DNA from: a virus
Taxonomy: Duplodnaviria; Caudoviricetes
IMG/VR virus record: IMGVR_UViG_3300037400_003286
Length of the DNA stretch: 64,000 nucleotides
Strand: one strand, 5' to 3'
The notes beneath the pieces were generated by a model. That model made no database searches. It was not told the DNA's origin and worked only from the letters and a program-made list of their open reading frames with translations. Positions 18,449-63,747 of the stretch are shown here, piece by piece (the stretch's first letter is position 1; every line of letters starts with the position of its first letter). The translations under genes and the position numbers were made by a program.

Positions 18449-18479
18449 ATTATACGTTAAATGAGCGAAATTGATTAAA
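18449..18479 (-). promoter_or_regulatory. Bipartite promoter TTTAATC-N16-CGTATAAT (putative middle promoter)
   Basis: Exact match; heads the DUF2693-uvsX-uvsY-gp4-gp2 operon. A late-like GGATAAATAC lies at 18491-18500. Confidence 0.8.
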
Positions 18480-18545
18480 CTTCGTTCAAAGTATTTATCC
18501 GTTTTTAAGGTCATTTCATAAAATACACAGCTTTGGTTTATTTTC

Positions 18546-18556
18546 AGATAAATAGT
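18546..18556 (+). promoter_or_regulatory. Late promoter AGATAAATAGT
   Basis: 23 nt upstream of ATG 18580. Confidence 0.8.
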
Positions 18557-18579
18557 GAAAAAGATAAAAACGATAGACA

Positions 18580-19173
18580 ATGACAGAATCAGAAGTTAGA
18601 TCAAAATGCACAAAGTTCTCGATAAAGAATTTCGTTGCCGATCTTCCAAGAATGCTGAATGAAGCTTTCAGTACAATATGTGACTGTATTTTCAGCTTCT
18701 ATAATGCAGACAACGGTGACATCCATCTTAAAAACATAGCAAAGCTTGAAGCCAGCTATATTGATGCAACCACAGTTGTTGCACAGAACCTGAGATTCAA
18801 AGGTTCTGACGGAACGATGTACAATTACAATGATATTGGAAGTATCCTTGAAAAAATAGAAAAGAAGATTAGCTCTATCAGCAATATATCCAAGTCACAA
18901 ATTGATTCACTTGATGTATATCCATTCCAACCCTGGCCTTTGTATGCTGATTTCTATATGATTAGACCTACAAGTCCAGAGCCAGGATGTAAAGTTCTTT
19001 CTGAATTCGGACTTACAATATGGGATGAAGATCCAGAAACACACGAATATGACTGGTTTGATACTCCAGTTGAGGACGGAGTGACATATCTTTGTGGATA
19101 CGATCTTCACATATACAAGAGAGATAAGGAAACAAGTCGTTGGATTGATCTTGGTAGTTACAAAAATAATTAA
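18580..19173 (+). CDS. Hypothetical late (probably structural) protein
   Basis: 197-aa ORF after a late promoter. Confidence 0.7.
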   Translation: MTESEVRSKCTKFSIKNFVADLPRMLNEAFSTICDCIFSFYNADNGDIHLKNIAKLEASYIDATTVVAQNLRFKGSDGTMYNYNDIGSILEKIEKKISSISNISKSQIDSLDVYPFQPWPLYADFYMIRPTSPEPGCKVLSEFGLTIWDEDPETHEYDWFDTPVEDGVTYLCGYDLHIYKRDKETSRWIDLGSYKNN

Positions 19174-19184
19174 TTAATTTTAAG

Positions 19185-21113
19185 ATGTCAAAGAAGCTTA
19201 GAACACCGATTATCATGCCAAGAATGCAAGGTGGAACATTCTACACCTTCGGTTCTGCTATGGAAGATATTGGTCTAAATATAAATGAAAATCACAACAG
19301 CGTAGAAATATCACACTATGTGTTGCTTGATATACCAAAATTCTCAAATGGTGTTGCACCAGAAGGTGTTTATCTCAACCTTGAAAGTGAGCAGAATTAT
19401 GACAGCGAAGAATATACTGTAGACTCAAGCACACAGGGTGATTTTATATTTGCCGATCAATTCCAGAATTACTGTCTTAACTTTGAAACTGTTCTTAGAA
19501 ACCAGGACAGTTATAATTATGCATCTAATAAAACAGTATCTGAAAGAGTATTCTGGAAATGGCTATTCAGCAATCTGAGAAACGAAGATCAAAGATTCAT
19601 AAAAGATGGTGATTACTATTATGAGAAAAAAGACAAGGCTATAGCCAAGGCTTTCGGTGCTATATCTGCTGGTTCACAAAGAACAGATGATAGCGGATTA
19701 TACAATGAAACGTTTGTTCAAATTCCATCATCTTATGGTCAAATGAGAGTATTGTTCAAAAGTACAATAGATGAAAACTACATCGAAAAGACTTATAACG
19801 GAACAAACATCGATCATATGATTGAAAATATCAATGAAAGTGAACTCACGGATGCTGCTGGAAAATCAGATATTATAACTTTCAGAATGACAGATGATAG
19901 TTTTTCATATCCTGGTGACGGAACAACAATCACAGAAAGAAGCACTGGAACCATACTTATGGTAATATCAACAGACAAACCAGAATATAAAATAACATGT
20001 AAGTTCCTCGATGAAATAGTAACTCTTCCAGAAAACGGTGATCTTACAATTGATGGAGAAGATCATTCATATGCTGGTTATAGTTACGGAAAAGTTATAA
20101 AGGCTACAGGTATTTCTCCTATAGCAAAATCAGATAATGATAGCCAAAAAAGTCCATCATATATCATATCATCTGGTAACATATATGATAAATTTGAGGT
20201 TGAATTCGATATAACAAAACTTAGAGAATATTACAACAATTCAAGCCTTACTTATGATGATATAGGTATGGGTAAAACAAATAGATCTGATGTTGATCTT
20301 GAAATGTATGATGATTTCAGATTCAACGCTATACTTGTTTATTATTCAATATATGATTCAAACAAGACAAAGAGACTGGCAACAAATGCTTACGGTGTAT
20401 ATATACTTGATGGTGCTATAGAATCATCTGATATAAGTAAAGTATTCTATTTCCCATCAATTATCAAAGCAAAATCAGGAACAAATAAAAACGGTACATC
20501 TTATTCGTTTAGAATAAATGTCAAACCATCTACAGCTTATAGTGGTGATATTGTTGTTAATGATAATTCAACCGCAGGATATAGCATGTCAGAGGATTTC
20601 AACGATGTGTTGAGAAATCTTACAGCAGCTATAACAACCCTTAAGGAAAATGCAAAAGTTCTTTATAGTGTTTCAAAAAACAACAATGAGATGAAGACTC
20701 TTGTCGAAAACACAATGGAAAAGATTAACGATATTGAAACAGATATAAAAAATATAAAGAACGGTAATTTTCCATATACTGCTGATGCAATATTCAAAGA
20801 AGAAGAATCTGTTGGAAATGCCTTAAGTGCGTCAATAGCAAGAAATGTATTAAACGCAATAAATGTAACATGTAATACATCGACTGGAGATATAGGCATG
20901 GAATTAAATACAACTGGACTTTCTGGTACAGCATTGGTTATAGCAAAAGCACTTAGAAAAAACATCCAGGATAACAATCATTTGAATATTATTAATATGA
21001 TCGCTTTGCTTGTCGCAAGAACATCTGGCGTATCAGCAACAATGTCAAAAAAAGTTGAATATATAGCTAATGCATTTGATAAAAGAGATCCGACAATCAT
21101 AAGAATGGACTAA
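19185..21113 (+). CDS. Putative virion structural protein
   Basis: 642-aa ORF in a late operon; C-terminal coiled coil. Confidence 0.6.
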   Translation: MSKKLRTPIIMPRMQGGTFYTFGSAMEDIGLNINENHNSVEISHYVLLDIPKFSNGVAPEGVYLNLESEQNYDSEEYTVDSSTQGDFIFADQFQNYCLNFETVLRNQDSYNYASNKTVSERVFWKWLFSNLRNEDQRFIKDGDYYYEKKDKAIAKAFGAISAGSQRTDDSGLYNETFVQIPSSYGQMRVLFKSTIDENYIEKTYNGTNIDHMIENINESELTDAAGKSDIITFRMTDDSFSYPGDGTTITERSTGTILMVISTDKPEYKITCKFLDEIVTLPENGDLTIDGEDHSYAGYSYGKVIKATGISPIAKSDNDSQKSPSYIISSGNIYDKFEVEFDITKLREYYNNSSLTYDDIGMGKTNRSDVDLEMYDDFRFNAILVYYSIYDSNKTKRLATNAYGVYILDGAIESSDISKVFYFPSIIKAKSGTNKNGTSYSFRINVKPSTAYSGDIVVNDNSTAGYSMSEDFNDVLRNLTAAITTLKENAKVLYSVSKNNNEMKTLVENTMEKINDIETDIKNIKNGNFPYTADAIFKEEESVGNALSASIARNVLNAINVTCNTSTGDIGMELNTTGLSGTALVIAKALRKNIQDNNHLNIINMIALLVARTSGVSATMSKKVEYIANAFDKRDPTIIRMD

Positions 21114-21131
21114 ATATATTTTATATAAAAA

Positions 21132-21170
21132 TAATGATCGAATTTCATTTAAGAAGTTCGATCATTTTTT
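21132..21170 (+). terminator. Intrinsic terminator
   Basis: AATGATCGAA(T)TTC...GAAGTTCGATCATT followed by a T-run. Confidence 0.75.
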
Positions 21171-21202
21171 ATTATCCAAAATTGCGCAATAATGTTCTTG
21201 TT

Positions 21203-21213
21203 AGATAAATAGT
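21203..21213 (+). promoter_or_regulatory. Late promoter AGATAAATAGT
   Basis: Upstream of ATG 21242. Confidence 0.8.
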
Positions 21214-21241
21214 GAAAAAGACGAAAACATCTACATATAAG

Positions 21242-23569: not shown

Positions 23570-23599
23570 TAGATCATAATATAAAAAAACAGGAAGAAA

Positions 23600-29545: not shown

Positions 29546-29547
29546 AG

Positions 29548-35731: not shown

Positions 35732-35762
35732 ATTATACGGTAAATAAACGAAAACGATTAAA
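35732..35762 (-). promoter_or_regulatory. Bipartite promoter TTTAATC-N16-CGTATAAT
   Basis: Exact match upstream of the glycosyltransferase operon. Confidence 0.8.
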
Positions 35763-35787
35763 AAAGGAGGCAACAAATATTGCCTCC
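35759..35787 (-). terminator. Intrinsic terminator
   Basis: GGAGGCAA-loop-TTGCCTCC followed by a U-run on the minus strand. Confidence 0.8.
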
Positions 35788-38201: not shown

Positions 38202-38229
38202 ACTATTTATCCTTTTGCAAATATACAAC
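38202..38229 (-). promoter_or_regulatory. Tandem host-type (GTTGTATATTTGCAA) and late (GGATAAATAGT) promoters of uvsW
   Basis: The two motifs lie back to back, 2 nt apart. Confidence 0.7.
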
Positions 38230-38285: not shown

Positions 38286-38296
38286 AGATAAATAGT
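38286..38296 (+). promoter_or_regulatory. Late promoter AGATAAATAGT
   Basis: 17 nt upstream of ATG 38314. Confidence 0.8.
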
Positions 38297-38313: not shown

Positions 38314-39852
38314 ATGTCAGTAATAAATGATGTTACATCAATACAAGAGGCTGCAACGAAATTCGTAAGCGATATTCTGGGAGGTCTCAATACAGCAGCT
38401 ACACAAATAGCTGGTGTTGATGTTATGTGGTTCAGACTTCAGCCAGACAAGCGTTCACAAGATGTTATATTCCAGTCTTATACGCTTTATGGTGTTGAGG
38501 ACTGTCCTCTGTCGTTGAAAGCAATGTACGCTGATAACAGCTATGATGATGCAGCAATAACATATAATATCATGGGTATAAACTTCAACGTTCCTATGAC
38601 ACTTGATATTGCACTAAATACATGGAATGAAGCTACTGGAAACGACGGAACAATACCACAGAAAGGTGACATAGTTTTCATACCGATGACAAGAAAGCTT
38701 ATGGAGGTAGTAAGTATGCAACCAGTAAAGCAGCTTGGTGGACAGCTTACATCCTACAAAGTTAATCTTTCAATATATACACCTACAAGAAACAGGATTG
38801 TTGGGGAACAACTCAAGGAAAGCATCGAAAACAACACAACCAATCTTATGGAAAGATTCGGTGAGGATATTCATAAAAATGTCGAGGATATTGTTGATGA
38901 TAACCAGCTTTCACTATTCGATTCGACATCAAAGGATAAACAGAAGAAAGTTACTCCAACAAACACAAGCGAAACAATAATGCTTGATGTAAGGACAATT
39001 ATATCATACGATCTTATAATTGACGGACACACAGTAGCAAGAAACTACTATAATCTTGATTCTCCATCTAAGCATATTGTAGATTATAAGGAACACGATA
39101 TTGTTTCAACAGAAAACGAAAGATGCCTGTCTTGTTGGTTCAAGATAAACGATACAAAGAACACCGCTATCAAAAACATAAAAGACGGTATTATTGTATC
39201 TAAGGAAAATGGTGAATATTTTATAGATACATCTGTTGGAAGCAAATTTGCAAAGGATGAGAATGTTGTGATAAAGAGAGGATCTATTGTTATTCCTGGT
39301 GTTGTTGTAAACGAATCAAGAATAAAAGTAAACGGAGATCTTATAACGAAGATTAACAAATCTGTTCCTGGTTGGAAAAATATGCCAGGATATGCTATCA
39401 CATCAGACAGTGTAATAGGATTGCTGAACAGCGATGTTTTCAATGTTTCTGTCAAGGGTGGTAAGATGATTTCAATATCTACATCAGATGAAGAAGCTCT
39501 CATCACAATGACAGAAGACATAAAGACAGAAAAATGGTATGGTGTTATCGTTAACTTCGGTGATGACTTCAGTGTTGACTTATATACAACAGTTGACGAC
39601 AAACTTACAAACATATCATCAGTTTCTGGAATAAGTAATGAGATTTATGAAAGTGTTGAAATAGATCATTATTACATCAACTCATCAAATGGTGCATTGA
39701 CAAACATCAGATTATATAATACTTTCAACAGAGAAATAGACAAACAACTAACGGATTTGGTATCTTATAACATCAGAAATGATCATAATGCTATCATTAA
39801 TGACAGTGCAGATACTTATCTGAATAAAGAATATAAGGGTAGACAAAGATAA
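38314..39852 (+). CDS. Neck protein (T4 gp14-like) with C-terminal LamG/ConA-like extension
   Basis: QDVIFQSY...PQKGDIVFIPMTRKLMEV resembles gp14; LSCWFK..KWYGVIVN..LTNIRLYN resembles LamG. Confidence 0.65.
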   Translation: MSVINDVTSIQEAATKFVSDILGGLNTAATQIAGVDVMWFRLQPDKRSQDVIFQSYTLYGVEDCPLSLKAMYADNSYDDAAITYNIMGINFNVPMTLDIALNTWNEATGNDGTIPQKGDIVFIPMTRKLMEVVSMQPVKQLGGQLTSYKVNLSIYTPTRNRIVGEQLKESIENNTTNLMERFGEDIHKNVEDIVDDNQLSLFDSTSKDKQKKVTPTNTSETIMLDVRTIISYDLIIDGHTVARNYYNLDSPSKHIVDYKEHDIVSTENERCLSCWFKINDTKNTAIKNIKDGIIVSKENGEYFIDTSVGSKFAKDENVVIKRGSIVIPGVVVNESRIKVNGDLITKINKSVPGWKNMPGYAITSDSVIGLLNSDVFNVSVKGGKMISISTSDEEALITMTEDIKTEKWYGVIVNFGDDFSVDLYTTVDDKLTNISSVSGISNEIYESVEIDHYYINSSNGALTNIRLYNTFNREIDKQLTDLVSYNIRNDHNAIINDSADTYLNKEYKGRQR

Positions 39853-47077: not shown

Positions 47078-47112
47078 ATAAGTTGTTGATTTTCAGCAAC
47101 TTATTTTATTTT
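47078..47112 (+). terminator. Intrinsic terminator
   Basis: ATAAGTTGTTG-loop-CAGCAACTTAT followed by a T-rich tail. Confidence 0.7.
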
Positions 47113-47230
47113 TATAAACACAATATATAAAATATTATTTAGACAAAATCTAAATTACATTTTTATTTCACTGATTATCAATGAGTTACAAACAAAATGA
47201 AAAAATATTTCGAAAAAAAGTTTCAAAAAA

Positions 47231-47261
47231 TTTAATCGTTTTGCAAAAAGTTGCGTATAAT
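47231..47261 (+). promoter_or_regulatory. Bipartite promoter TTTAATC-N16-CGTATAAT
   Basis: Exact match; about 190 nt from the next ATG, inside a long AT-rich intergenic region. Confidence 0.75.
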
Positions 47262-47396
47262 AAATTGAGGACAATTTGAAAATGATATTATATTTTTTAT
47301 TAATATTATAAATATTCTTAGAACGCAAAACGCCCGTCTAAAGTTAAACTTTTGATAAGAAATTCCTCTGAATTTTTATAGATCGATCCAGAAAAA

Positions 47397-47407
47397 AGAT
47401 AAATAGG
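47397..47407 (+). promoter_or_regulatory. Late promoter AGATAAATAGG
   Basis: Upstream of ATG 47450; another perfect copy at 48015-48025 precedes the 48197 gene. Confidence 0.7.
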
Positions 47408-47449
47408 AACGAGAAAGGATTCTCTTAAAAAAGAAAACAAAAACAGAAA

Positions 47450-48196
47450 ATGAATACTTTTTTAAATTTCCTCAAGAATATTTTTGTTTGGATCTTCAAA
47501 GACTGGAGAAATGTTGTTAGTATTGCTTCTCTTATTGCTGTGATCATATTGGCTTGCAAATATAGAAGTCTTAAGAGTGATTACAATGATATTCAGAACA
47601 GTGCTCAGGATACATTGACTGTATATAAGAATAAAGTCGGTGAACTGTATGCACAGCAGAAAACATACATTGTTGAAATCAAGGATCTGAAGAAGCATAA
47701 CCAGGAACTTTACGATGAAGTTAAGAATCTGAAAGATCATCCTATCGTCGTTACTAAGATAAAGACTGTGACGGAATACAAGGATAAGATAGTAAAGGAT
47801 ACCGTTACAATAGATCCATCTGGTAACTATACCTTCAATATGAATTACAATGATCCTTGGCTTAACCTGTCTGGAAAGTCTACATTAAACATAGAGACAA
47901 TGATAGGAACTGCAAAATTCGACTCCATATCATTCCCGAATACAATTACTGTAGATCTTATAGAAAAGAATAACCAGCTTTCATTCATCGCAAAGTCGGA
48001 TAATCCATATTGTCAGATAAATAGTTTAAACGGATCGATCCTGTCACCAGAGACATCATCCGTTCTGAAGAAGAGATTCGACAAGAAATGGGCTGTTGTC
48101 GTTGGAGTAGGCCCTACGTTGTCCGTATATGATAACAAGATTGTAATTCTTCCAGGACTACAGGTGACGATTGGTCGTAAATTATTTGCATTCTAA
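47450..48196 (+). CDS. Membrane-anchored coiled-coil protein, possible spanin-like lysis protein
   Basis: N-terminal TM helix, coiled coil, C-terminal amphipathic beta strands ending in Phe. Confidence 0.5.
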   Translation: MNTFLNFLKNIFVWIFKDWRNVVSIASLIAVIILACKYRSLKSDYNDIQNSAQDTLTVYKNKVGELYAQQKTYIVEIKDLKKHNQELYDEVKNLKDHPIVVTKIKTVTEYKDKIVKDTVTIDPSGNYTFNMNYNDPWLNLSGKSTLNIETMIGTAKFDSISFPNTITVDLIEKNNQLSFIAKSDNPYCQINSLNGSILSPETSSVLKKRFDKKWAVVVGVGPTLSVYDNKIVILPGLQVTIGRKLFAF

Positions 48197-50140
48197 ATGG
48201 CACTGAAGAGTAGATTTTTACAGATTAGTGATATTATGATGTTTGAGTACGTCATGCATGAGGGACCTAACAATGCAGACGAGTCAAACCCAACGTCTTT
48301 CATATATACAAAGCTGAAGGATAACCATACCCTTCTGCTTTCACCTATTTCATATGAGTGTGTCAAGACATCGGACGGAGAAAAGGATAAGTATAAAATA
48401 CTGAAGGATCCGCTGACTATCAATACACTCAACCATACGGTTATACCTACTGATGAAAAGGATTCCATGTTCTTCCACTTCCTTGATCCAGATTACAAGT
48501 ATGTGGATGAGTCGATTATGGATGAACTCTACTATAATCAGATTAAGCCAAGGATGTACAATAAGCACATGGTTAATCCTATCGAACCGAATGGATATCC
48601 TCTCAGTGACTATTATTCTGATATTACCGATGTCAGATGGGATTCTGCTAGATTGTATTTCGTTAACGGATATGATTTCAGCAATGTGTATGGTATATAC
48701 ATGAGAATATCTGTGAATGGTAACGATATAAAGGACAGTAAGGGAAATATCGTGGAGAGTGACAGAGTGATCGATCTTTGCGACATATTCATAAACAAGT
48801 CTAATTTCTATAAGCTGTGCAAGTATTCAGTTAATCCGACAATGTTCGGAAACAACATATACGACAGATATATTGAAGTCAATGTTGCATGCGTATGGGA
48901 TCTTATTCAGAACAGATATAACCATGAACATTATGACACTGAACTGTTTGAGATCCTTAACATCAAGGATGATACTCAAGTAAGGTTAAGCTTCGCATAT
49001 ATCATGGATGAGGATATGTCAACACGTATTCTCGATCTTAATGAATATACTGATGCTGATAAGGAGAAGTTCCCTACAATAGATACGGATCAGGTTGTTC
49101 TTGAATTCACTAGATCATCTGTACTTAACGGTACTATACCAAGAGTTGATCTTAATTCGGATAATCTCGGTGCTTATATAGCCGAATGTCAGGATATGCC
49201 TTATCTTATATTTTATGCTACATGGAGGGATAAGCCTCTGACTGCACATACGGTATGGTCGTTCAATAAAGGTATAAGGCTGTATGACAGATCACTTATC
49301 AGGGATGACTATGAAGAAGAAGTAAGTGATGATTATGAACCAGAATATGATATGAAGAAATGGCTTGTCATCCATGAAATAAAGTGTTCATTCTGTATGG
49401 GTGATCATGTAGTCAAGGAAGAGACATATTCAATGACTCAGATTTTCGTGAACGAGACAGATGCTGACAAGTTCTACTACAGACCTATCATATTTGATGA
49501 GGCTGTTGGATTGTATATAGACAATGTTCAGATTGTATATACGATGAGACTTGTTAACTCACATGACAAGATTCAGTTCGTGAAGGTTTCAACTTTGTCT
49601 CTTTATGGCAATATGTCAAAATACTATGTCAAGGGTACAAGCCTTAAGACTGCTGATTTGACACCATATAAGATTTACAATAAGATCATAGAACAGAAGC
49701 ATGAAAATGTACCAAGTGTAAACAATGTACAGAAGACAAAGTATGTAAAGGTATTCTATAATTCAACAGAAGTTGTGCTTGATGATCAGGGTAATGTCGT
49801 AAACGGTGAGTATAACTACACACTTACTGTAAGCCAGGCTCCTAAATCATACAAGTTTGTGTTCAAGACACTCGGTGCTAACGGCACGTATTCATATATG
49901 GATATGTCAAACGGATATTACAAACTTATGTTCAAGGATGAAGGAAAAGAAACTAATTTGATCGATCCTACATTCTCAACAAACATGAATCTGTATATCG
50001 GTGAGCTTGAATTCAATTTCAATATGACTATGCTTAACAAGATGGCTGCTGTACCAGAGGAAGACAGAAAGATGTCTATCGTTGCATACAACGAGGATGG
50101 TTCAGTAAGTTCTATGTTTGATTTCATGTATGTTATTTAA
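48197..50140 (+). CDS. Hypothetical late (structural) protein
   Basis: 647-aa ORF with an upstream late promoter. Confidence 0.6.
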   Translation: MALKSRFLQISDIMMFEYVMHEGPNNADESNPTSFIYTKLKDNHTLLLSPISYECVKTSDGEKDKYKILKDPLTINTLNHTVIPTDEKDSMFFHFLDPDYKYVDESIMDELYYNQIKPRMYNKHMVNPIEPNGYPLSDYYSDITDVRWDSARLYFVNGYDFSNVYGIYMRISVNGNDIKDSKGNIVESDRVIDLCDIFINKSNFYKLCKYSVNPTMFGNNIYDRYIEVNVACVWDLIQNRYNHEHYDTELFEILNIKDDTQVRLSFAYIMDEDMSTRILDLNEYTDADKEKFPTIDTDQVVLEFTRSSVLNGTIPRVDLNSDNLGAYIAECQDMPYLIFYATWRDKPLTAHTVWSFNKGIRLYDRSLIRDDYEEEVSDDYEPEYDMKKWLVIHEIKCSFCMGDHVVKEETYSMTQIFVNETDADKFYYRPIIFDEAVGLYIDNVQIVYTMRLVNSHDKIQFVKVSTLSLYGNMSKYYVKGTSLKTADLTPYKIYNKIIEQKHENVPSVNNVQKTKYVKVFYNSTEVVLDDQGNVVNGEYNYTLTVSQAPKSYKFVFKTLGANGTYSYMDMSNGYYKLMFKDEGKETNLIDPTFSTNMNLYIGELEFNFNMTMLNKMAAVPEEDRKMSIVAYNEDGSVSSMFDFMYVI

Positions 50141-50166
50141 TCATTTTAATCAATTTAACGTATAAT
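50136..50166 (+). promoter_or_regulatory. Bipartite promoter TTTAATC-N16-CGTATAAT
   Basis: Exact match upstream of the gp26-like gene. Confidence 0.8.
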
Positions 50167-50197: not shown

Positions 50198-51223
50198 ATG
50201 AAGAAGAAAACTGAAGAGGATTTAATGAGTGCATATGTTGCACAAGAGGAAACTCCTGTGACACAGAGTCCTTTTAAGGAAGCAAAGGTCGAGGTTGTAC
50301 AGCAGCCAGATGAGCCGCAAGTACCTCAGAAGACTATGGCTGAAATTGCTAGGGAAAACAGAACTCACGGTAAGGAAGGAATGCCTTTTACTGGAAACGG
50401 TTCTGGATTGAAATACAGAGACAACATCGGTTGGCTCAAGATTGACGTTAAGACACTTCCTACACAGGGACTTTTCTATCCAGACGGAATGGAAATCAGT
50501 ATCCGTGCTGCAAGAGGTGAGGAAATCAAGCACTGGTCAACAATGAACGATCAGGATATTAACCAGCTTTCAAGGGTTGATGATATTCTTAACTATATGA
50601 TCGAGAAATGCTGCAACGTCAAGAATCCTAACTATCCTGGAAACTGTTGGAAGGATTTGAAGAATGTTGACAGATTCTATATTCTTCTTGCAATCAAGGA
50701 GTTTACTTTCATCGATGGTGAGAATGAACTTATGGTTCCTATTTCTGAGGATAAGCAGATTCCTGTCGTAAAGGAAATGATTGACTTCATCAAGATTCCT
50801 GAAGAGATCATGAAGTTCTACAATCCAGATGAGAAATGCTTCATTTTCAATATCGCTGGTAATCCTATGAAGATTCATGTTCCTTCTCTCGGTGTAAACG
50901 ACTGGCTGAAGAAATATGTAGCACAGAAGATCAATGCTAAGGAAGGATATGATGAGGACTTCATCACATATGCTCCTATGCTTATCAAAGACTATCGTGG
51001 ATTAGGACAGAGAGCATACGAGGAAATGGTCGGTGCTTCACGTCTTTGGAATGTGAAGGAATGGTCTGTACTCGCTTATGTAACGGAAAAACTTGGTGGC
51101 GCAACTGAGCCTAAGATTAAATATACTAACGAGGATGGTGGGGAAGTGGAAATCCCCTTAACCTTTCGCGGAGGTATCCGCTCTCTTTTCGTGCTTTCAA
51201 ATCCGCTACTCTCAATATGTTGA
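50198..51223 (+). CDS. Baseplate hub assembly chaperone (T4 gp26-like)
   Basis: LPTQGLFYP..ISIRAA..EI..; DLKNVDRFYILLAIKEFT. Confidence 0.7.
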   Translation: MKKKTEEDLMSAYVAQEETPVTQSPFKEAKVEVVQQPDEPQVPQKTMAEIARENRTHGKEGMPFTGNGSGLKYRDNIGWLKIDVKTLPTQGLFYPDGMEISIRAARGEEIKHWSTMNDQDINQLSRVDDILNYMIEKCCNVKNPNYPGNCWKDLKNVDRFYILLAIKEFTFIDGENELMVPISEDKQIPVVKEMIDFIKIPEEIMKFYNPDEKCFIFNIAGNPMKIHVPSLGVNDWLKKYVAQKINAKEGYDEDFITYAPMLIKDYRGLGQRAYEEMVGASRLWNVKEWSVLAYVTEKLGGATEPKIKYTNEDGGEVEIPLTFRGGIRSLFVLSNPLLSIC

Positions 51224-51500: not shown

Positions 51501-51504
51501 TCAC

Positions 51505-51540: not shown

Positions 51541-51575
51541 GATAAATAGAAGGAACAAAACGTTTTTCATATAAG

Positions 51576-53313: not shown

Positions 53314-53314
53314 A

Positions 53315-54754
53315 TTATGCAAATGCTAAATATTTAACTTGAACTGGGAATGGATTTGGATTATAAACAATTACACTTGGGATAAGGTTCTTTACCTCTG
53401 GATAGTTAGGATCATCAGGAATTGTAGTTCTAGCATAGAACTGTCCTACAGTCATCCAGTTGTTAGTTTTTGAAAGATAAGCGCAATATCCTTCAACACC
53501 CATCTGGTCTCTGTGTTCAAGATTTCTCTCGATCGATCTACCACTGTCTGTATATGATATGCTTGAATTTTCCCATTCATCAAGCATTTCTGGTACAACC
53601 TGAGGTATCTCATCGGAATCAATCCAGTCATCATATACTGAATTATGGCTGTAGAATCCCATCCACTTGTTGTAAAGATCCCTATCATATTCGCACTGGA
53701 AAAGATCATTCACGTCAACAATCTTTCTAACAGCAACGAATGTACCATCCAACAGGCATTCAGGAATAGCATAGAATTCCTGTACACGATCAGCAATATG
53801 AGCAACCTTTACGGCCTTCTGTATAGGTTCGATTGCTTCAGTGTTGTACTGAGGATAAACAATGTTCAGTACAATACCTAGCATAGCACCGTTCTTATAT
53901 CTCTTTGAAGGAACATATCTTCTGAAATCCTCGAAAAGATAAATCTTCCTTACATCATTTTCCTCAAGTATTTCGTTAAAGTCCGTATCAAGACAATTAA
54001 GAAGATTGTAAAGTCTTGTATAATCTTCTTTCTTGAGTATTGATGAATATGCATTTATAGCACCAGGTGAATAATTATCAATATTGTTACCCTTAACATA
54101 TCCATCATCCCATCCATAATCATATGAGTGACCATGTTCAATCATCCACTGGTTAATGTAATAGAATATGTCAGTACCGTCTTCTGAATTCCAGAACATT
54201 ACATGGCTTACCCAGAATTCGTAATCAAGCTTAGTTGCAGTGAATACTACATATCCGTCATCAAAAGTAACAGTGATTGGAATTTCCTTTTTCTCGAAAT
54301 AATTATTCATAGCATCTATGAATGTTATTTCCTCATCTATATTTCCAGTACACTTGATAATCTCTATCACTTTGTTACCAGTCTTAAGGTTAAGATACTT
54401 GATAACAAAGAATATCATTCCTTTGTACATCCAGTCTTCATCTTCTGTGATAGGACCGATTATTCTTCCGTAAGACTTCGAGCAATATGAATCACCGAAC
54501 AACCAACCTCTGATATAACAGAACTCATTTGGCTGGAGTATTCTTGAGTTTGATGTGTACTGTGAAAGTCCGACATGTATATCTGACAGATCGATCGAAG
54601 AAAGAACACCGTTGTTGTCTGTTATCTCTCCGCTTGATTCGTTAATGTCGAATGATAGTTCATCGGCAGAATCACCATTGCTACACAGTATATCGGCATA
54701 AATGTATGATTTTGTCGGATTGTTATAATATTTTGAAAAAAGATCCGTTGCCAT
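53315..54754 (-). CDS. Hypothetical late (structural) protein
   Basis: 479-aa ORF downstream of the tail-tube-like gene. Confidence 0.65.
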   Translation of the reverse strand: MATDLFSKYYNNPTKSYIYADILCSNGDSADELSFDINESSGEITDNNGVLSSIDLSDIHVGLSQYTSNSRILQPNEFCYIRGWLFGDSYCSKSYGRIIGPITEDEDWMYKGMIFFVIKYLNLKTGNKVIEIIKCTGNIDEEITFIDAMNNYFEKKEIPITVTFDDGYVVFTATKLDYEFWVSHVMFWNSEDGTDIFYYINQWMIEHGHSYDYGWDDGYVKGNNIDNYSPGAINAYSSILKKEDYTRLYNLLNCLDTDFNEILEENDVRKIYLFEDFRRYVPSKRYKNGAMLGIVLNIVYPQYNTEAIEPIQKAVKVAHIADRVQEFYAIPECLLDGTFVAVRKIVDVNDLFQCEYDRDLYNKWMGFYSHNSVYDDWIDSDEIPQVVPEMLDEWENSSISYTDSGRSIERNLEHRDQMGVEGYCAYLSKTNNWMTVGQFYARTTIPDDPNYPEVKNLIPSVIVYNPNPFPVQVKYLAFA

Positions 54755-54778
54755 TCTCTTTTTGTATTTATATTTCTT

Positions 54779-55327: not shown

Positions 55328-55372
55328 CTATTGAGACTTTCTTTTCACTATTTATCTGATCTTACTAATGTA

Positions 55373-56800: not shown

Positions 56801-56825
56801 GTATAATCGTATTCGCAATTCTCTC

Positions 56826-56836
56826 AGATAAATAGT
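56826..56836 (+). promoter_or_regulatory. Late promoter AGATAAATAGT
   Basis: 23 nt upstream of ATG 56860. Confidence 0.8.
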
Positions 56837-56859
56837 CAAAAGGAATCTGAAGCTTTACA

Positions 56860-57093: not shown

Positions 57094-58469
57094 TGGAAGA
57101 ACAGAAAACACCTTTATACCAGAGATATAATTTCGATAACGTTTTCAACAGAAGCGTTATTGCTGGTTTATTGTACCTTCTTAATCACAACCTAACATAC
57201 GAACAGGTATGGGATGATAATACTGTTGAACAAGTTACAGTACCGTTTGCATATAATTTCGCACATGCAAGAGATCAAAGATTTGCTCAGGATAACTATA
57301 CATTCTTCGGAAGAGAATGTTTCTCCGATAAATTCATAGACGGTAAGTTCGATATGTGTCCAAGATTCGCAATGACATATACTGGTTCTCAGATTGAAGC
57401 ATCAAACATAACAAACAGATTCGTAAAGGGAACATACATGAAGGATGAGAATGGTGTACTTACATCATATACAGCTTTCATGTACTCAATTCCACTTACT
57501 TTGAATTTTGAATTTGAAGGATGGATTGATACACTAGAAACCGCATTCAAAATTGAACAGGCAATCAGAGAAGCATTCTATAAGAATCAGACATTCAATG
57601 TTTTGTATAGAGGAATGAAAATCGGATGCCGTGCTGGATTCCCAGAATCTTATTCTGTCGGAGAGAAAACCGTAAGCTATTCATTCGAATCTGAATCACA
57701 GCTTATCAAAATGAGTTTCTCTCTTGCAATTGAAGCATACCAGCCTTGCTTTGATGAATCTCAGTCTATACAAAGTGAAAAGAAGATTGAATATTTTGCT
57801 TTCGATCCTGCCGTTTATAATAATCACAACACACCGACAAACAAGCAGATAGAATTACATCTTCATCCTATTGATACATCAATATATTACGCTGCTGGTC
57901 AGACCATAGAAATATCATGGGATGCAATATCAAACTCATCTGACGTATATACAATATTGCTTTATTATATAACACCAGACGGTGACAAACATATAATAGA
58001 ATGTTCACTTCGTCAACACAACTTCTTTGACTGGACTATACCAGGAAACATTTCCAATTTCAAACAACCTAATGTTCTGTTCTATGATACCGATGAAATT
58101 CAGATCAAGAAACAACCTAATATCGTTGTCATACCAGAATCAACAGGATATGTCAACAGTGGATGTTTCGGTATATTGGATCCAGGAGAATTTTCAAATG
58201 ACGGATATGTTCAGGTATCATGTGAATATAATGATGCATCATCGAACATAAAAATACACGATTGTTACATTGCTGAAGTATCAAAAGAAGAAGGTGTAAA
58301 ACAAATTTTCTATTATAAAGATACACCTGTTTATGAAGAGTTTGTTGTAACGAATCCGAAACGCTTAAAATACAAAAAAGGTGACTTTGGAACCGAAATT
58401 ACAGTAGGAATCGCATATCCACAAAATATGGAAATTAAGGATGAAATACATAATTTGTTGATAATCTGA
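57093..58469 (+). CDS. Tail terminator/sheath stabiliser (T4 gp15-like) with C-terminal Ig-like extension
   Basis: VTVPFAY..PRFAMTYTG..SIPLTLNFEFEGW..FKIEQAIREAFY; extension YAAGQTIEISWD..FDWTIP. Confidence 0.7.
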   Translation: MEEQKTPLYQRYNFDNVFNRSVIAGLLYLLNHNLTYEQVWDDNTVEQVTVPFAYNFAHARDQRFAQDNYTFFGRECFSDKFIDGKFDMCPRFAMTYTGSQIEASNITNRFVKGTYMKDENGVLTSYTAFMYSIPLTLNFEFEGWIDTLETAFKIEQAIREAFYKNQTFNVLYRGMKIGCRAGFPESYSVGEKTVSYSFESESQLIKMSFSLAIEAYQPCFDESQSIQSEKKIEYFAFDPAVYNNHNTPTNKQIELHLHPIDTSIYYAAGQTIEISWDAISNSSDVYTILLYYITPDGDKHIIECSLRQHNFFDWTIPGNISNFKQPNVLFYDTDEIQIKKQPNIVVIPESTGYVNSGCFGILDPGEFSNDGYVQVSCEYNDASSNIKIHDCYIAEVSKEEGVKQIFYYKDTPVYEEFVVTNPKRLKYKKGDFGTEITVGIAYPQNMEIKDEIHNLLII

Positions 58470-58562
58470 TAGTTACAATTTTACATTTTTATAAAAATTT
58501 TTTGCGTTTTGAAAATAAATAGTAAAAGGATAATTTTAAACATATTTAACACATAATTTTAC

Positions 58563-61500
58563 ATGGAAAAAATGGAAAACAAAACACTCTCTATGGTCAC
58601 GATCGTACCGATTCGTGCCGCAATTGAGAAGCTTTCGCTTTCCGAGTCAAATTCCATAGCCATTCAGAATTTCTGTAAAGAATATAATGAGAAGCTTGAC
58701 AGCGGATTGCACGAGGAACAGATCTGTGAGCAATTTGTGATCGATCTTTCTAAGATTGCAGAATCCGAAACAGCAAAGGCTGTTCTGAATGACGTGAATG
58801 AGGCTGTGAAAGCTAACGAAGCTAACATTAAATTAGCAAACAATGTTTATAATCTTAGCAAAGGATCATGTATGTTCGTTGCTCCTATGATTGAATCAGC
58901 AGTTGTTGATTACATCATAGACAAGAATTCTACTACAAGAGACAATGTGAAGATTAATCTTTCGTTGTTTGAAAGTGACAGCACAGTTCAGAATATTCTT
59001 GAGACATTGCAATATGAGCAATACGAGGAGAAGAACGGAAAGACTCTCGTAAATGCAGAGTTGAAGGAAGCTTTCAAGACCCCTGAAGTAAAGACTTACA
59101 CACAGGAGGAAGTTGACAGAATCCTTAGCGACAAGGTTAATGAGATGGCAGAAGCTGAGAAGAATGTCGAGAAGAAGACAAAGAATATGATCAAGAGTCA
59201 TATCGGCCTCAGTGAAGCAATTACGGCGATTCTGAAAGAAAACAAGAATGAAAAACTTAAGGTATTCTGTGAGCAGTACATTGATGCTCTTAACTCTGGT
59301 AAGCCAGAGGAGCTTCTTTATGAGTCATTCATTTCTGGTATTTCTAATTGGAATTACCTGAGTGCTGTTGACACAGAGCTTTCAGCATTGAAGGACAGAG
59401 TTTCACAATATAAGCAGGACATTGATCTTAAGAAGATTCTTGAGACGATGGCTCAGACTGGTTCATATTATATTGTTCCATTGATCGAGGATGTTGTTGT
59501 TGATTATGTTGAGAACAAGAACATGGCTACACGCGCTATCCTGTTGCAGAGACTTGAAGCATTCGAGTATGATCCATTCGTGCGTGATATGGAGTGCTTG
59601 ATCACAAGAGACCTTTCAATCGAGAATACGGTTTATCTTGGTGAGTCTGTTGAGTATCTTAACAGCCAGGTTAAGACTGAACTTATTTTCTCTCCTGTTC
59701 AGTACATTAAGGAAAATGAGTGTGTATTCAATGTGAAGGGTGCTTACTACGCAAGAAAGGGTACTAACATTGCAAAGCTTACAAAGAATGAGGTTGCATC
59801 ATTAAGTGAGTCGTTCAAGTCACTTTGTAATCTTGTAAATTCAGATAATGTTAAATTCTCTCAGGAACTTAACTCTATCACAGTTTACGGTGGTGCTAAT
59901 ACTTGTGTTATCACTGAGTCAGAGATCACAGTAAATGGCAAGGAAGTTACTTCAGATGAATTGAAGAAACTTATGGAAACAGCTATCGCCATGAGAAGTG
60001 ATGATGCTGAGTTCTACGCTATGTCTGTCGCATTGAACGAACATTACAATGATATTGCTTATATTGATTTTGTTAAGAGAATCGAGGCAAGAGACAACAG
60101 TGGTAAGTCTTGTGATGTATTCAAGCTGAAGGAGAGTATTTTCGTTAATACTACAAATAGCAATCTTGGAAGATCTACTTTCTATCGTAATGTTAATCCT
60201 ATTCAGTGCCGTAAGTATATCAACGAGCATATGGAAATCAATTGCGGTCCTTTGTTCGAGGATGAGCTTCCAGAGCAGGAGAAAGTAGCAAAGGCTATTG
60301 ATGATAAGAAGAAAGAATATCAGGACTATATCGATTCACTTGAGGAGAAGAAAGAAACTCTCCAGGCTATGAAGGATGAGGGTGCTGATACAGATGATAT
60401 TGATAAGGCTATCGACATGATCGATAAGGAACTTGAGGATACAAAATCTGATTTCCTGAAATATCAGAAGGATGCTGACAAGTATCTGAATGGTGATGAG
60501 GATGATGCTGATGATTCTTTGAAGAATGAAGTTCCCGATACAGAGGATGATGATAAGGAAGGATCAGACGATGCTGAAAATAAGGATGGAGAAAACGGTG
60601 AGGACAACGATGATAGCAAAGTCGGTGACGAGCTTGATCCAGACAAGGAGTCGGCAGAGGACATGGAAAAGCCTATCGAGGGTGAACCAGGTGAAGATGC
60701 AGCAGAGACAGAATTCCCAACAGATGATGAGTTTGCTGATGTTGCTGAATATGATCCAGATTTCGATGTTCCTACTGAGGTTGTAAAGACAGAGACAGAA
60801 CAAGACCAGTCAACTGATATTGGCTACGGCAAGTTCCAGATCGTAAAGGTTTCTTACAACAGAAATGTAAAGACTGGTGCTGAGAACGGTCACGGTGAAG
60901 TTATCCTTGTGATTCCTTCAGTTGATGCTAATGGTGATGTACATGATGATATGAGAAAGGTTACTTTCTATCTTGATCAGGACAAGACACCTACCATCAA
61001 TAACGAGTACATGCCTCTTGATATGTACACACAGATTGTTGACGCAATCGTAAACGATCCTCAGACAGAATCAGTTTCGGTTGGTGATGTTAAATCCCCA
61101 GAAACAGATGAAACACTTCCTGCTGAATCAGTAGAGGAGCCAAAGGATGTAGAGAACATCAACGTTGAAGACGCTGTTGCTACTACAGAGCCAGAGGAAA
61201 AGTCTGAAGATGAAATAAAAATAGAAGATACAAAACCAGCAGAGATTCAGGAAACTCCAGCAGAAGTTCAGAAAGCTGATGCAGAAGAGGCTTCATATCC
61301 TATCACTGTAGGTTTGTATCCAGAAGAGATCGCTCCTATCGAGGTATCAGATTTCGAGAAGGATCTTGATGATAAGATGAAGATCGAGCATACTGAGAGT
61401 GAGGCAAATGACGGAGAAATCTGTTTGAAGATCGCTAATAAGGCTCAGGCACATGCTTTGAAGAAGTATTTCCATGAGTGGAAGGCTTACGATGACGATC

Positions 61501-63209
61501 AGTTCTGTTCATTCTTCCCAGAGTTACAGAAGTGCTTCGATAACAAGCCAGCAAATATCGATGTAATGCCAGCAAATGAAAGTGTTAAGATTACTGGAGT
61601 AAAAGCTATCAGCGAAAGCAAGAAAGAGCCTTTTCGTGTAATGCTTCCATGTAACGAGTCGCTTTGTGAATTGTTCGGTATTGAGAAGAAAGGAAACATG
61701 ATACAGTTCCAGGTTGTTCCTGAGAACAAGGATGAAGAGTATAAGATTTATGAGTCTCTTTACAACTATGCAAGAAAGAACAACGGTAACGTTGAACAGG
61801 ATGTTGTAGACTTCCTTGAGAAGTATGGTGACGAATATGGACACCTTTGTGAGAGCAACTACAGCTACAAGCTTAATGTTCCATATAACAACTTCCTTGC
61901 ACAGAAACTTACAGCCAACGGATTCGAGGTTAAGTCTGTTAACGAAAGCATGTCAACAGAAATCTTGAAGGAAGACTATAAGAAAGCAAAGAAGATTCTC
62001 GAATCATTCTATGGTGATGCTGCACCTGTTGAGGCAAGGGATTTTTTTCAATTCCTCAGTGAGAACGTCAGGATCACTGTAAAGGACGAAACGACTGGTA
62101 AGACCGTCGAGATTAATACTGACGACTTCAATGGTAAGAATGAAGGAACAGCAGATAACGGTGTAGCAGCCGATTTCGATGATTCATTCAAGAACGTTAC
62201 ATTTAACCCGCAAGACAGCCTTGCATTCAAGGATGATGAAGAATCAGCCGATGATGAGGATGAAGACAAGGATAAGAAGGATAAGAATGACAAAAACGTA
62301 AGCGATACTAATGAAGGAACTGAAGACGAAAAGTCTGAGAAAACTGAGGATGTCGAATCCAATAAAGAAAATTCCGAGGAAGAACATAACGAGGAAGAGT
62401 CTAAAGAGGATAATGGATCAGAGGATAAAAAGTCAGAAGACGAGAAGCCAAAGAAGAAGTTTAAATTCAAGGTTAAGAAGTCAAAGGCTGACGAATCGCT
62501 GAAACAGGATGAAAAAAATCATCTTAACGAATCAGATTTGAACATTGCGGAACCAAACGTTCTTGACTATGTTAAATGTAAAGACGGAAACAAAGGTCAG
62601 ATTATCTGCAAACAAGCTGATGGTGACTTTATTGTGAACGTCAATGGTCATACTAAGATATATCCAAAGTCTGATGTAGAATTGGTACATGCAAGATTCG
62701 ATCTTGTTGATACTCCATTCAAGTATGACGATGCTACTCTTAGGGGTGTTTACGAAAGCTATGTAAACTGCGGACTTTTTGTTAATAACACTCAGGTTAC
62801 TCCTAATGATTGCAAAGTTCAGCTTCTAGAATTCATGACAGCAAACGACGATGCAGAAATTAACCTAATTATCGAAGGAGAAAAGACAAAAGCACAGAAG
62901 AAGTATATTAGAATCACAGAAAGCCTTGATGAGCTGATCGATCTTGCAAATTATTCAAAGGGTACTATGACTTACATCGTTGAAGGTGTTGAGCAGAAGA
63001 CCGATGTGTTGATTAATACAAGAGATTATCAGACATACATGGTTATGAATGAGTCTACTATCCCTGTCAGAACTCTTATTTTCGATGAGAACGGTGAAAC
63101 TCATATGAGTAATATTCCTGGTGGAAATCTTATGATTTGTGAATCTGAGGATTACTTCAAGCCAGAAAGTGAAAGATTAATGGAGAGTGCTATTGCAGCA
63201 CTTTCCTAA
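58563..63209 (+). CDS. Giant acidic putative prohead core/internal head protein
   Basis: 1548 aa; internal duplication; many L/I/V/M-x-E-S sites; late-like promoter AAATAAATAGT at 58513-58523. Confidence 0.55.
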   Translation: MEKMENKTLSMVTIVPIRAAIEKLSLSESNSIAIQNFCKEYNEKLDSGLHEEQICEQFVIDLSKIAESETAKAVLNDVNEAVKANEANIKLANNVYNLSKGSCMFVAPMIESAVVDYIIDKNSTTRDNVKINLSLFESDSTVQNILETLQYEQYEEKNGKTLVNAELKEAFKTPEVKTYTQEEVDRILSDKVNEMAEAEKNVEKKTKNMIKSHIGLSEAITAILKENKNEKLKVFCEQYIDALNSGKPEELLYESFISGISNWNYLSAVDTELSALKDRVSQYKQDIDLKKILETMAQTGSYYIVPLIEDVVVDYVENKNMATRAILLQRLEAFEYDPFVRDMECLITRDLSIENTVYLGESVEYLNSQVKTELIFSPVQYIKENECVFNVKGAYYARKGTNIAKLTKNEVASLSESFKSLCNLVNSDNVKFSQELNSITVYGGANTCVITESEITVNGKEVTSDELKKLMETAIAMRSDDAEFYAMSVALNEHYNDIAYIDFVKRIEARDNSGKSCDVFKLKESIFVNTTNSNLGRSTFYRNVNPIQCRKYINEHMEINCGPLFEDELPEQEKVAKAIDDKKKEYQDYIDSLEEKKETLQAMKDEGADTDDIDKAIDMIDKELEDTKSDFLKYQKDADKYLNGDEDDADDSLKNEVPDTEDDDKEGSDDAENKDGENGEDNDDSKVGDELDPDKESAEDMEKPIEGEPGEDAAETEFPTDDEFADVAEYDPDFDVPTEVVKTETEQDQSTDIGYGKFQIVKVSYNRNVKTGAENGHGEVILVIPSVDANGDVHDDMRKVTFYLDQDKTPTINNEYMPLDMYTQIVDAIVNDPQTESVSVGDVKSPETDETLPAESVEEPKDVENINVEDAVATTEPEEKSEDEIKIEDTKPAEIQETPAEVQKADAEEASYPITVGLYPEEIAPIEVSDFEKDLDDKMKIEHTESEANDGEICLKIANKAQAHALKKYFHEWKAYDDDQFCSFFPELQKCFDNKPANIDVMPANESVKITGVKAISESKKEPFRVMLPCNESLCELFGIEKKGNMIQFQVVPENKDEEYKIYESLYNYARKNNGNVEQDVVDFLEKYGDEYGHLCESNYSYKLNVPYNNFLAQKLTANGFEVKSVNESMSTEILKEDYKKAKKILESFYGDAAPVEARDFFQFLSENVRITVKDETTGKTVEINTDDFNGKNEGTADNGVAADFDDSFKNVTFNPQDSLAFKDDEESADDEDEDKDKKDKNDKNVSDTNEGTEDEKSEKTEDVESNKENSEEEHNEEESKEDNGSEDKKSEDEKPKKKFKFKVKKSKADESLKQDEKNHLNESDLNIAEPNVLDYVKCKDGNKGQIICKQADGDFIVNVNGHTKIYPKSDVELVHARFDLVDTPFKYDDATLRGVYESYVNCGLFVNNTQVTPNDCKVQLLEFMTANDDAEINLIIEGEKTKAQKKYIRITESLDELIDLANYSKGTMTYIVEGVEQKTDVLINTRDYQTYMVMNESTIPVRTLIFDENGETHMSNIPGGNLMICESEDYFKPESERLMESAIAALS

Positions 63210-63228
63210 AAACAAACTGGATTGAAAA

Positions 63229-63666
63229 ATGGCTATAGATTGGACAACAATTGTTGTGACTATAATTGGTCTTATTGGTAGCGGTGGTATCGGTTCTCTG
63301 ATTGCTCTTAAGTATTCTAAAAGAAAGGCTAAGACTGAAGCAAATTCAGCAGCCAATCAGGAACAGGCTGAAAGAATAGATTTGGGTGACAAGTATGTTA
63401 ATCAGATGCTTGCTATGCTTGAAAAACTTCAATCAGCACAGGATCAGAATCTAGCAATGAGTAAGGTTAACAGCTACGAAAGAAAAGAATCCTGGGATGC
63501 TGTTGAAAAAAAGATGACGGAAATTCACGATGACATTGTAAACGTAAAGAGTGAAGTGTCAAGTATTGTCCTGTACTTGAATGGCGGTTACAGACAATAT
63601 AAGGCAGAGCATCCAGAGCTTAAAGCGTTAGATGTAATTTCTGAAGAATCTGAAAGCAACGATTAA
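63229..63666 (+). CDS. Single-TM coiled-coil protein (holin-like candidate)
   Basis: DWTTIVVTIIGLIGSGGIGSLIAL followed by a basic patch and coiled coil. Confidence 0.55.
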   Translation: MAIDWTTIVVTIIGLIGSGGIGSLIALKYSKRKAKTEANSAANQEQAERIDLGDKYVNQMLAMLEKLQSAQDQNLAMSKVNSYERKESWDAVEKKMTEIHDDIVNVKSEVSSIVLYLNGGYRQYKAEHPELKALDVISEESESND

Positions 63667-63678
63667 TGTTTTAAATAT

Positions 63679-63719
63679 AAACAAAGAGACGGGAGAAAAA
63701 TCTTCCGTCTCTTTGTTTT
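63679..63719 (+). terminator. Intrinsic terminator
   Basis: AAACAAAGAGACGG-loop-CCGTCTCTTTGTTTT. Confidence 0.85.
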
Positions 63720-63747
63720 AATCGTTTTTATAAAAAATACGTATAAT
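63717..63747 (+). promoter_or_regulatory. Bipartite promoter TTTAATC-N16-CGTATAAT
   Basis: Exact match, 25 nt upstream of ATG 63773. Confidence 0.8.

Follow-up and report, generated by a model that had tools for sequence, protein, structure and literature searches.

To our knowledge, early-to-middle switching in T4-type phages that carry no MotA/AsiA is poorly understood, and very few of the annotated sigma genes of huge phages have a known target. The closest described promoters belong to several systems. Promoters of the extracytoplasmic function (ECF) sigma factors of B. subtilis read tGAAACnTTTt at the upstream box and CGTA at a SigW-selective -10 element, with 16 nucleotides (nt) in between (Gaballa et al. 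2017, PMC5758882). ECF spacers measure 14-17 base pairs (bp), and the T-tract beside the -35 box is functionally important, in SigV-responsive promoters (PMC5758882). The MotA box of T4 middle promoters, (a/t)(a/t)(a/t)TGCTTtA, lies 12 +/- 1 bp from the -10 element (PMC2988021), and tertiary origins of T4 need a middle promoter of the MotA/AsiA type, according to references B126 and B127 as cited in PMC2988021. The cascade of phage SPO1 runs through gp28 and then gp33/34 (PMC13401047), and passages of PMC4331800 give TAATGTATA as the consensus of the phage sigma of phiEco32 and 7-11. The Bacteroidota consensus combines a -7 element TAnnTTTG with TTTG at -33 (PMC4747536), and Bacteroides promoters lose their activity when TTTG of that -7 element is changed, as Bayley et al. 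are quoted in PMC4747536. The locus compared here with these systems lies in a 64,000-nt stretch of viral DNA (Duplodnaviria; Caudoviricetes; IMG/VR record IMGVR_UViG_3300037400_003286), referred to as the window, which contains five exact copies of a bipartite promoter element, TTTAATC-N16-CGTATAAT. We read these five sites, with moderate confidence, as middle promoters served by the ECF-type sigma factor encoded at 6578-7339. The DNA comes from a huge phage of T4 type that is related to the Lak phages and has a Bacteroidota host; the window displays three promoter classes: host-type early TTGTAnnTTTGCAA (class H), bipartite (class A) and T4-late-like AGATAAATAGT (class L).

The original prediction, made by a model from the letters alone, had listed five exact copies of the bipartite element with a 16-nt spacer, and a pattern search agrees with it on number, position and strand. 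None of 100 dinucleotide-preserving shuffles of the window gave any match. The sites, with the terminators and genes around them, are the following (aa, amino acids; ORF, open reading frame).

18449..18479, minus strand: class-A promoter P1, 12 nt before the ATG of a WYL_2-domain gene at 18122-18433
16872-18098, minus strand: UvsX/RecA-like gene, second gene after P1, behind the WYL_2 gene
35732..35762, minus strand: class-A promoter P2, 28 nt before a 62-aa ORF followed by 284-aa and 321-aa genes
35766-35787: terminator before P2 (-14.8 kcal/mol, z -3.7)
47231..47261, plus strand: class-A promoter P3, the 'orphan', next ATG 188 nt away
47078-47104: terminator before P3 (z -5.4)
50136..50166, plus strand: class-A promoter P4, 31 nt before a 341-aa gene at 50198-51223
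63717..63747, plus strand: class-A promoter P5, 25 nt before the gp55-like late sigma gene
63680-63717: terminator before P5, with a 17-bp stem (-25.5 kcal/mol, z -8.7)
63773..64000, plus strand: gp55-type late sigma gene, N-terminal 76 residues, cut by the window end

Aligned, the sites read TTTAATC(G/A)(T/A)TTT, then a spacer of variable sequence, then CGTATAAT. Four of the five run on as CGTATAATAATATAAA, within the pattern AATATAAA(G/C), and the fifth (47231) runs on as AAATTGAGG. Every site lies between genes, in the orientation of the gene that follows. The end of TATAAT is 12, 25, 28 and 31 nt from a same-strand ATG in four of them and 188 nt in the fifth, and the -35 box of P4 overlaps the stop codon of the preceding gene. 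The longer tail, the sense orientation and the distance of 12-31 nt to a start codon that had been claimed for four copies were all confirmed. P2, P3 and P5 are positioned directly 3' of the strong hairpin-plus-T-run terminators listed above. Copies of TTTAATC-N16-CGTATAAT with one or two mismatches are absent from the window, and its three matches with three mismatches are at chance level. A weight matrix built from the window sites together with the sites of a relative scores the five sites at 36-56 bits, the rest of the window at no more than 12 bits and the best of 10 shuffles at 10.6 bits; the matrix includes the sites being scored, so only the empty gap between these scores is informative.

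The element recurs in three relatives, all represented by incomplete contigs: G001, a 220-kb IMG/VR contig, G002, a contig of 164 kb, and G005, a fragment. The scan of the window and its relatives that had been proposed as a check returned the five window sites, 11 sites in G001 (spacer of 16 nt in ten, of 17 nt in the other; reversed-pattern control, 0), two in G002 and two in G005. Thus the spacer measures 16 nt in 19/20 class-A sites across four phages, and the consensus after the box is gTTTT. The start of the -10 element is more variable than predicted: the proposed CGT(A) is found in 5/5 window sites and 4/11 G001 sites, all as CGTA, and the other 7/11 G001 sites have A in place of C and read AGTATAAT (AGTA), leaving GTATAAT as the invariant part. 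Scanned across IMG/VR, the class-A core pattern gave, among the matches listed, mostly single chance ones, with multiple matches in G001 only; the pattern ending in GTATAATAAT matched only G001, that with AATATAAA matched nothing, and the G005-type variant TTTAATGG matched nothing beyond G005. From these pattern scans the lineage of the window itself seems to be missing from IMG/VR. A megablast search of the phage collection with 12 kb of the window gave no match, and blastn at default settings found no similarity to the window in the three motif-bearing G001 stretches tested. In Lak-A1 the motif is not enriched (24 matches vs 24 control matches), and the Lak-A1 gp55 homologue has no class-A site upstream.

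Several of the G001 sites occupy the same places as those of the window. P1 has a positional orthologue at 89132-89162+, before WYL_2 and UvsX, and P5 has one at 39189-39219(-), 24 nt before the gp55 homologue. The intergenic region of P3 (window 47100-47460) is 77% identical to G001 53852-54200 (L134:13840-14200, -), and the site at 51072-51102(-), before a 350-aa gene beside the P3 orthologue, is by its position the probable orthologue of P4. Both G005 sites read TTTAATG and are orthologous, by their flanking genes, to two G001 sites that read TTTAATC. The site scans and this recurrence support the original claim of a distinct, phage-specific bipartite promoter class.

The genes behind class A place it in the programme of the phage. 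P1 and its G001 counterpart are each followed by a WYL_2-domain gene and a UvsX-like gene, and further G001 sites precede genes for a DnaB-like helicase, an anaerobic ribonucleotide reductase (NrdD) and a piece of a family-B polymerase (PolB), two of these sites standing in tandem with class H promoters. T4 middle promoters cover the same kind of gene set and are often paired with early ones (Hinton 2010, PMC2988021). The 76 residues of the gp55-like protein behind P5 (63773-64000) share 92% identity with a G001 protein of 148 aa. That protein matches phrog_234 'late sigma transcription factor' with an E-value of 7e-19 and has homologues in T4-like cyanophages that carry the gp55 annotation. 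As its gene set matches that of the T4 middle genes, class A is the middle tier of an early/middle/late programme and, on the timing inferred here, the tier that switches on the gp55-like late sigma, a role that the original prediction had overlooked.

The proposed reader of class A is encoded within the window.

6578..7339, minus strand: ECF-type sigma factor, 253 aa, proposed class-A reader

The protein matches only Sigma70_r2 and r4_2 in Pfam, scores 58.5 bits against NCBIfam TIGR02937 (cut-off 42.9) and has partial matches to the SigW, SigX, RpoE and Sig70_bacteroi1 models. A profile of 20 family members finds as its best solved relative B. subtilis SigW (5wuq; E 1.7e-13), with both domains aligned. 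The AlphaFold2 model predicts two helical domains, residues 19-116 and 171-252, with a disordered stretch between them (121-166), and lacks a sigma-3 domain; the top 12 Foldseek matches of this model are all ECF sigmas. The sigma-2 plus sigma-4 architecture, without region 1.1 or sigma-3, is that of the ECF family, and the ECF-like protein of the original prediction proves to be a genuine two-domain ECF sigma by Pfam, NCBIfam, the SigW profile match and the model. The possibility that it is a gp55 homologue was rejected, as the two have no similarity and a separate gp55 homologue is present.

The sigma lies in an operon that runs helicase (7667-9484), 104-aa gene, ECF sigma and 151-aa gene, and the order helicase, ~105 aa, sigma, ~150 aa with a C-terminal membrane helix is kept in relatives. 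In both the window and G001 the operon stands behind class H promoters, and in the window a terminator separates it from the unit of P1; therefore the sigma should be made early, which is what a switch for middle genes requires.

13338..13363, minus strand: terminator after the portal gene, between the P1 unit and the sigma operon

The 151-aa protein directly 3' of the sigma (6118-6573, minus strand) is conserved in G001, G002 and G005, carries the membrane helix and has no Pfam or PHROG match. Its identity to the G005 protein is 71%, vs 45% for the sigma. A cognate anti-sigma factor is commonly, though not always, co-transcribed with an ECF sigma, and a possible role of the 151-aa protein is that of an anti-sigma factor or some other partner. 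A palindrome, GGATCGATCC, was also observed, with 8 matches at no more than one mismatch vs ~1 expected. Two exact copies, 21 bp apart, stand behind the early promoter at 9533(-) and ahead of the first gene of the helicase-sigma operon, and this pair is a candidate operator through which early expression of the operon could be silenced.

9489-9498: palindrome GGATCGATCC
9510-9519: palindrome GGATCGATCC
48032-48041: palindrome GGATCGATCC
47380: one-mismatch copy
49959: one-mismatch copy
51508: one-mismatch copy

The two other promoter classes frame the middle tier. The class H core, TTGTATATTTG(CAA), contains the Bacteroides -7 consensus TAnnTTTG, and its three window copies precede two helicase genes and the genes of a major facilitator superfamily (MFS) transporter and an NAD ligase.

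9533..9543, minus strand: class H core TTGTATATTTG, 48 nt before the operon that starts with helicase 7667-9484
12934..12944, minus strand: class H core TTGTATATTTG, before the MFS transporter and NAD-ligase genes
38218-38228, minus strand: class H copy

G001 holds ~36 copies of class H with the full TTTG-N20-TAnnTTTG layout, concentrated at 165-216 kb among small genes, and its counterparts of the window promoters lie at 98237+ (helicase-sigma operon) and 94657+ (MFS/ligase). The G001 copies are near-identical, and their conservation extends far upstream (TTTAACTAAAATAATTTGGTG); behind six of them, 11-18 nt before ATG, comes a conserved leader motif with TTAACCAAC (AGTATTAACCAACAAAA in most). 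The MFS transporter gene at 11706-12881(-) comes first after its host-type early promoter and the NAD ligase gene next, an arrangement kept in G001. Between 5000 and 19000 a generic sigma-70 pattern matched 66 promoter-like sites vs 58 expected, and thus does not single out real promoters there.

Class L, AGATAAATAGT, resembles the T4 late element TATAAATA and has at least 11 copies in the window, 18-45 nt before start codons. It lies before the portal gene and before genes of large, probably structural proteins. In G001 there are ~20 copies, one of them before the portal gene, and the class is scarce in G002 and G005. The window copies and variants are as follows.

15181..15191, minus strand: class L AGATAAATAGT, 19 nt before the T4-type portal gene
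24-34, plus strand: class L copy
18546-18556, plus strand: class L copy
21203-21213, plus strand: class L copy
38286-38296, plus strand: class L copy
48015-48025, plus strand: class L copy
55347-55357, minus strand: class L copy
56826-56836, plus strand: class L copy
38202, minus strand: one-mismatch variant
47397, plus strand: one-mismatch variant
58513, plus strand: one-mismatch variant
51541, plus strand: a further GATAAATAG

The window has a T4 gp20-like portal protein (13368-15161, minus strand), ~40% identical to the portals of Prevotella Lak megaphages, together with genes for helicases, an MFS transporter, an NAD ligase and a UvsX/RecA-like protein. T4-type late promoters consist of a single TATAAATA-like -10 element with no -35 box, a form that class A does not have. 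The class-A tail AATATAAAG was considered as a T4-late element and rejected, since the tail varies (AATGTAGAG etc.) and a separate late class exists.

The assignment of class A to the 6578-7339 sigma draws on promoter layout, on co-occurrence and on covariation. Class A reads TTAATCgTTTT and has exactly 16 nt from the C of the box to CGTA; a short spacer of fixed length, within 14-17 bp, is a trait of ECF promoters, and a T-tract is one of some of them. The ECF-like layout of the original prediction is thus supported: the rigid 16-nt spacer and the -10 element starting CGTA, and in addition the T-tract after the -35 box, match the SigW type (PMC5758882). The three motif-bearing relatives all encode the sigma, at 41-53% identity; the motif in relatives that lack it, which had been named as one observation that would tell against the pairing, was not found. 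The homologue in Lak-A1, where the motif is not enriched, is only ~22% identical. The recognition helix of sigma-4 reads SVKNW[IL]R[KR]G in 17/20 family members, SVQNWLLKG in G005 and SVNNWIIKG in relative P0044. Homologues of the sigma also lie on long contigs of 265, 323 and 186 kb. In G005 the -35 box (TTTAATG) and this helix (K-to-Q, R-to-L) change together. A metagenome scan with the sigma alignment returned mostly generic ECF sigmas and one useful relative, L161, which has no site in its flanks. The original claim that class A is the target of this protein is thus partly supported, as regards layout, co-occurrence and the ECF nature of the sigma, and reading of the sites by this particular sigma is likely.

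In the proposed mechanism, host polymerase with the host primary sigma would start early at TTTG / TAnnTTTG promoters, including two upstream of the sigma operon. The phage ECF-type sigma would then bind the host core polymerase, its sigma-4 domain reading TTTAATC with the T-tract behind it and its sigma-2 domain reading (C/A)GTATAAT exactly 16 nt downstream, and transcription would start inside the conserved AAT(A/G)TA(A/G)AG block. The transcripts would cover recombination and replication genes (WYL_2/UvsX and, in a relative, DnaB-like helicase, NrdD and PolB) together with the gp55-like gene, whose product would in turn activate the AGATAAATAGT late promoters. The T4-like phage thus appears to time its genes by a chain of sigma factors and not by MotA/AsiA.

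Several observations weigh against reading of class A by the ECF sigma. The box, TTTAATC (with AATC) or, in G005, TTTAATG, does not have the AAC core that is usual in ECF -35 elements, and the C of CGT is A in 7/11 G001 sites. An invariant TATAAT is more typical of group-1 than of ECF sigmas. The sigma operon has no class-A site in front of it, and the sigma thus shows none of the autoregulation that is common, though not universal, among ECF sigmas. The covariation of box and helix comes from one lineage and two sites, the window is 64 kb of a phage genome and not a whole genome, and the reader, the start point of transcription and the timing are all inferred. Finally, G001 encodes a second, RpoD/RpoS-like sigma behind a host-type promoter.

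That second sigma (286 aa, RpoD/RpoS/RpoH-like; 165139-165999, L131:2140-3000; its promoter is canonical) offers another reader for the middle promoters, one encoded in relatives and outside the window, and we regard this as rather unlikely. On this view the factor would have diverged from the short primary sigma of Bacteroidota type and changed its -10/-35 specificity, and the sites would parse as TTTA-N21-TATAATAA, modelled on the host TTTG-N20-TAnnTTTG. Homologues 57-60% identical to it are common in ENA and Logan assemblies, so the phage of the window probably has one outside the window, and Lak-A1 has three sigma-region-2 matches: ECF-like, a second strong Sigma70_r2 at ~213 kb, and gp55-like. 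Its regions 2.3/2.4 have no WW dyad (YAQAYI[RS]RNM) and base-contact positions of its region 4.2 are changed, so its specificity is probably unlike that of host-type and of standard sigmas. It may depend on a separate promoter class, and a search for enriched k-mers upstream of G001 genes gave three classes and a 5'-leader motif only, with no fourth class for it. The perfect TATAAT and the ~20-nt distance between the boxes would likewise fit a group-1-like reader. However, the second sigma is not in the window and was not found on the motif-bearing 164-kb G002 contig (the contigs are incomplete). Moreover, its 4.2 base contacts differ between G001 (E..H) and an abundant 58%-identical lineage (K..N), which is assumed to be the lineage of the window, although the -35 box is the same in G001 and the window. 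ECF promoters are also the better fit to CGTA, to a spacer fixed at 16 nt and to the T-tract that follows the -35 box, and the change of the -35 box in G005 coincides with changes in the sigma-4 helix of the ECF protein.

Reading of the sites by host polymerase with a host sigma, whether an ECF sigma of the host or its primary sigma with or without help, is improbable. The help would come from a phage activator on the TTTAATCGTTTT box, as in the sigma appropriation of T4 MotA/AsiA, and the perfect TATAAT hexamer of class A and a gene set of the same kind as the T4 middle genes suit such an arrangement, T4 middle promoters keeping an excellent host -10 element beside a phage-specific upstream box (PMC2988021). 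Compared with the canonical TTGACA-N17-TATAAT (spacer 17 +/- 1 bp), class A has the -10 hexamer in full, and its best -35 hexamer, TTAATC, matches 3/6 with an 18-bp spacer. The box lies 18 nt from TATAAT, vs 12 +/- 1 for the MotA box, and homologues of MotA/AsiA were found in none of the window, G001, G002 and G005, in line with the original statement that class A differs from MotA-box promoters. At the position of the -7 element class A reads TATAATAA and not the TAnnTTTG of the Bacteroidota primary sigma, a difference that had also been noted originally. The same phage uses canonical TTTG / TAnnTTTG promoters for other genes, and the host sigmaA is unlikely as reader because such proper promoters exist elsewhere in the phage and replacement of TTTG abolishes activity. 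A host ECF sigma fails to explain why the motif tracks the phage clade. The sites might also not be promoters at all, being instead a repeated protein-binding or recombination site or the remnant of a small mobile element. The P3 copy, far from any gene in an unusually conserved intergenic region, is the observation that invites this explanation, which is nevertheless very improbable: the sites are strictly sense, lie 12-31 nt from start codons and are placed right after terminators. In addition they have two boxes with a variable spacer sequence, keep orthologous positions in G001 without blastn similarity in the stretches tested, and have neither flanking repeats nor shared flanks beyond the motif.

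A wider proposal can be made, to which we give slightly less than even chances. In this proposal the ECF sigma replaced MotA/AsiA as the middle switch in a clade of T4-type huge phages of Bacteroidota, giving a sigmaA to ECF to gp55 succession, its specificity (TTTAATC-N16-CGTATAAT) co-evolves with its sigma-4 helix, and P3 is a transcription-primed origin of replication like oriF/oriG. The P3 region would, by analogy, resemble T4 oriF/oriG, at which replication is primed from a middle promoter; alternatively it could encode a small RNA. Within the region are conserved an upstream block, TAAATTACATTTTTATTT..ATCAA..AGTTACAA..TCGAAAAAAAGTT, the promoter, AAAkTGAGG and an AT-rich tract, and no tRNA genes were found downstream of P3 in the window. 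Two G001 class-A sites, 63059-63089(+) and 126882-126912(+), are directly followed by stable-looking hairpins, one of them without a gene for 1.6 kb downstream, and these sites may drive small RNAs.

The analysis yields a testable pairing of a sigma factor with a 31-bp promoter, for which G005 provides a natural specificity variant (TTTAATG with K-to-Q and R-to-L in the recognition helix). It also gives evidence for a Bacteroidota host and offers compact, possibly orthogonal promoter/sigma parts for Bacteroidota genetics. The three-tier promoter map lets the timing of genes be read directly from genomes of uncultured rumen and gut phages.

Compared with SigW-type ECF promoters, class A is similarly bipartite, with C as the last base of the -35 box, a T-tract behind it and a rigid 16 nt to CGTA, and SigW is the closest solved relative of the phage sigma. 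In contrast, the -35 core is TTAATC and not TGAAAC, so that AAC is missing, and the -10 element extends to an invariant GTATAATAAT whose preceding C is often A in a relative. The phage sigma further differs from SigW in a predicted 45-residue disordered acidic linker, in not being autoregulated, in having no partner with a recognisable anti-sigma domain, and in being phage-encoded and part of a developmental cascade, not of an envelope-stress response. With the MotA/AsiA middle promoters of T4, class A shares its position before replication and recombination genes such as uvsX, the frequent tandem arrangement with early promoters, and the combination of a TATAAT-type -10 with a phage-specific upstream box; the promoters of T4 tertiary origins parallel the orphan P3. 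Class A nevertheless has no MotA box, in phages without MotA/AsiA homologues, and its upstream box lies at the sigma-4 position; the proposed switch is a replacement sigma and not a remodelled host sigma. SPO1 and phiEco32 resemble the present phage in that a phage sigma made from host-type early promoters redirects the host core to a phage-specific middle class, and G001 sites contain TAATGTAAA, one base off the phiEco32 consensus. Those systems, in contrast, involve other sigma lineages and other hosts; the phiEco32 consensus is, in passages of PMC4331800, a single 9-bp -10-type element, and the cascade considered here ends in a T4 gp55-type late sigma with a T4-type virion and replication gene set. 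The Lak megaphages (Al-Shayeb et al. 2020, PMC7162821) belong to the same broad phage group and Lak-A1 has ECF-like and gp55-like sigmas, differing in that the class-A motif is not enriched. Class A is thus ECF-like in layout, MotA-like in its place in the programme and SPO1/phiEco32-like in its logic, and by definition a member of none of these classes.

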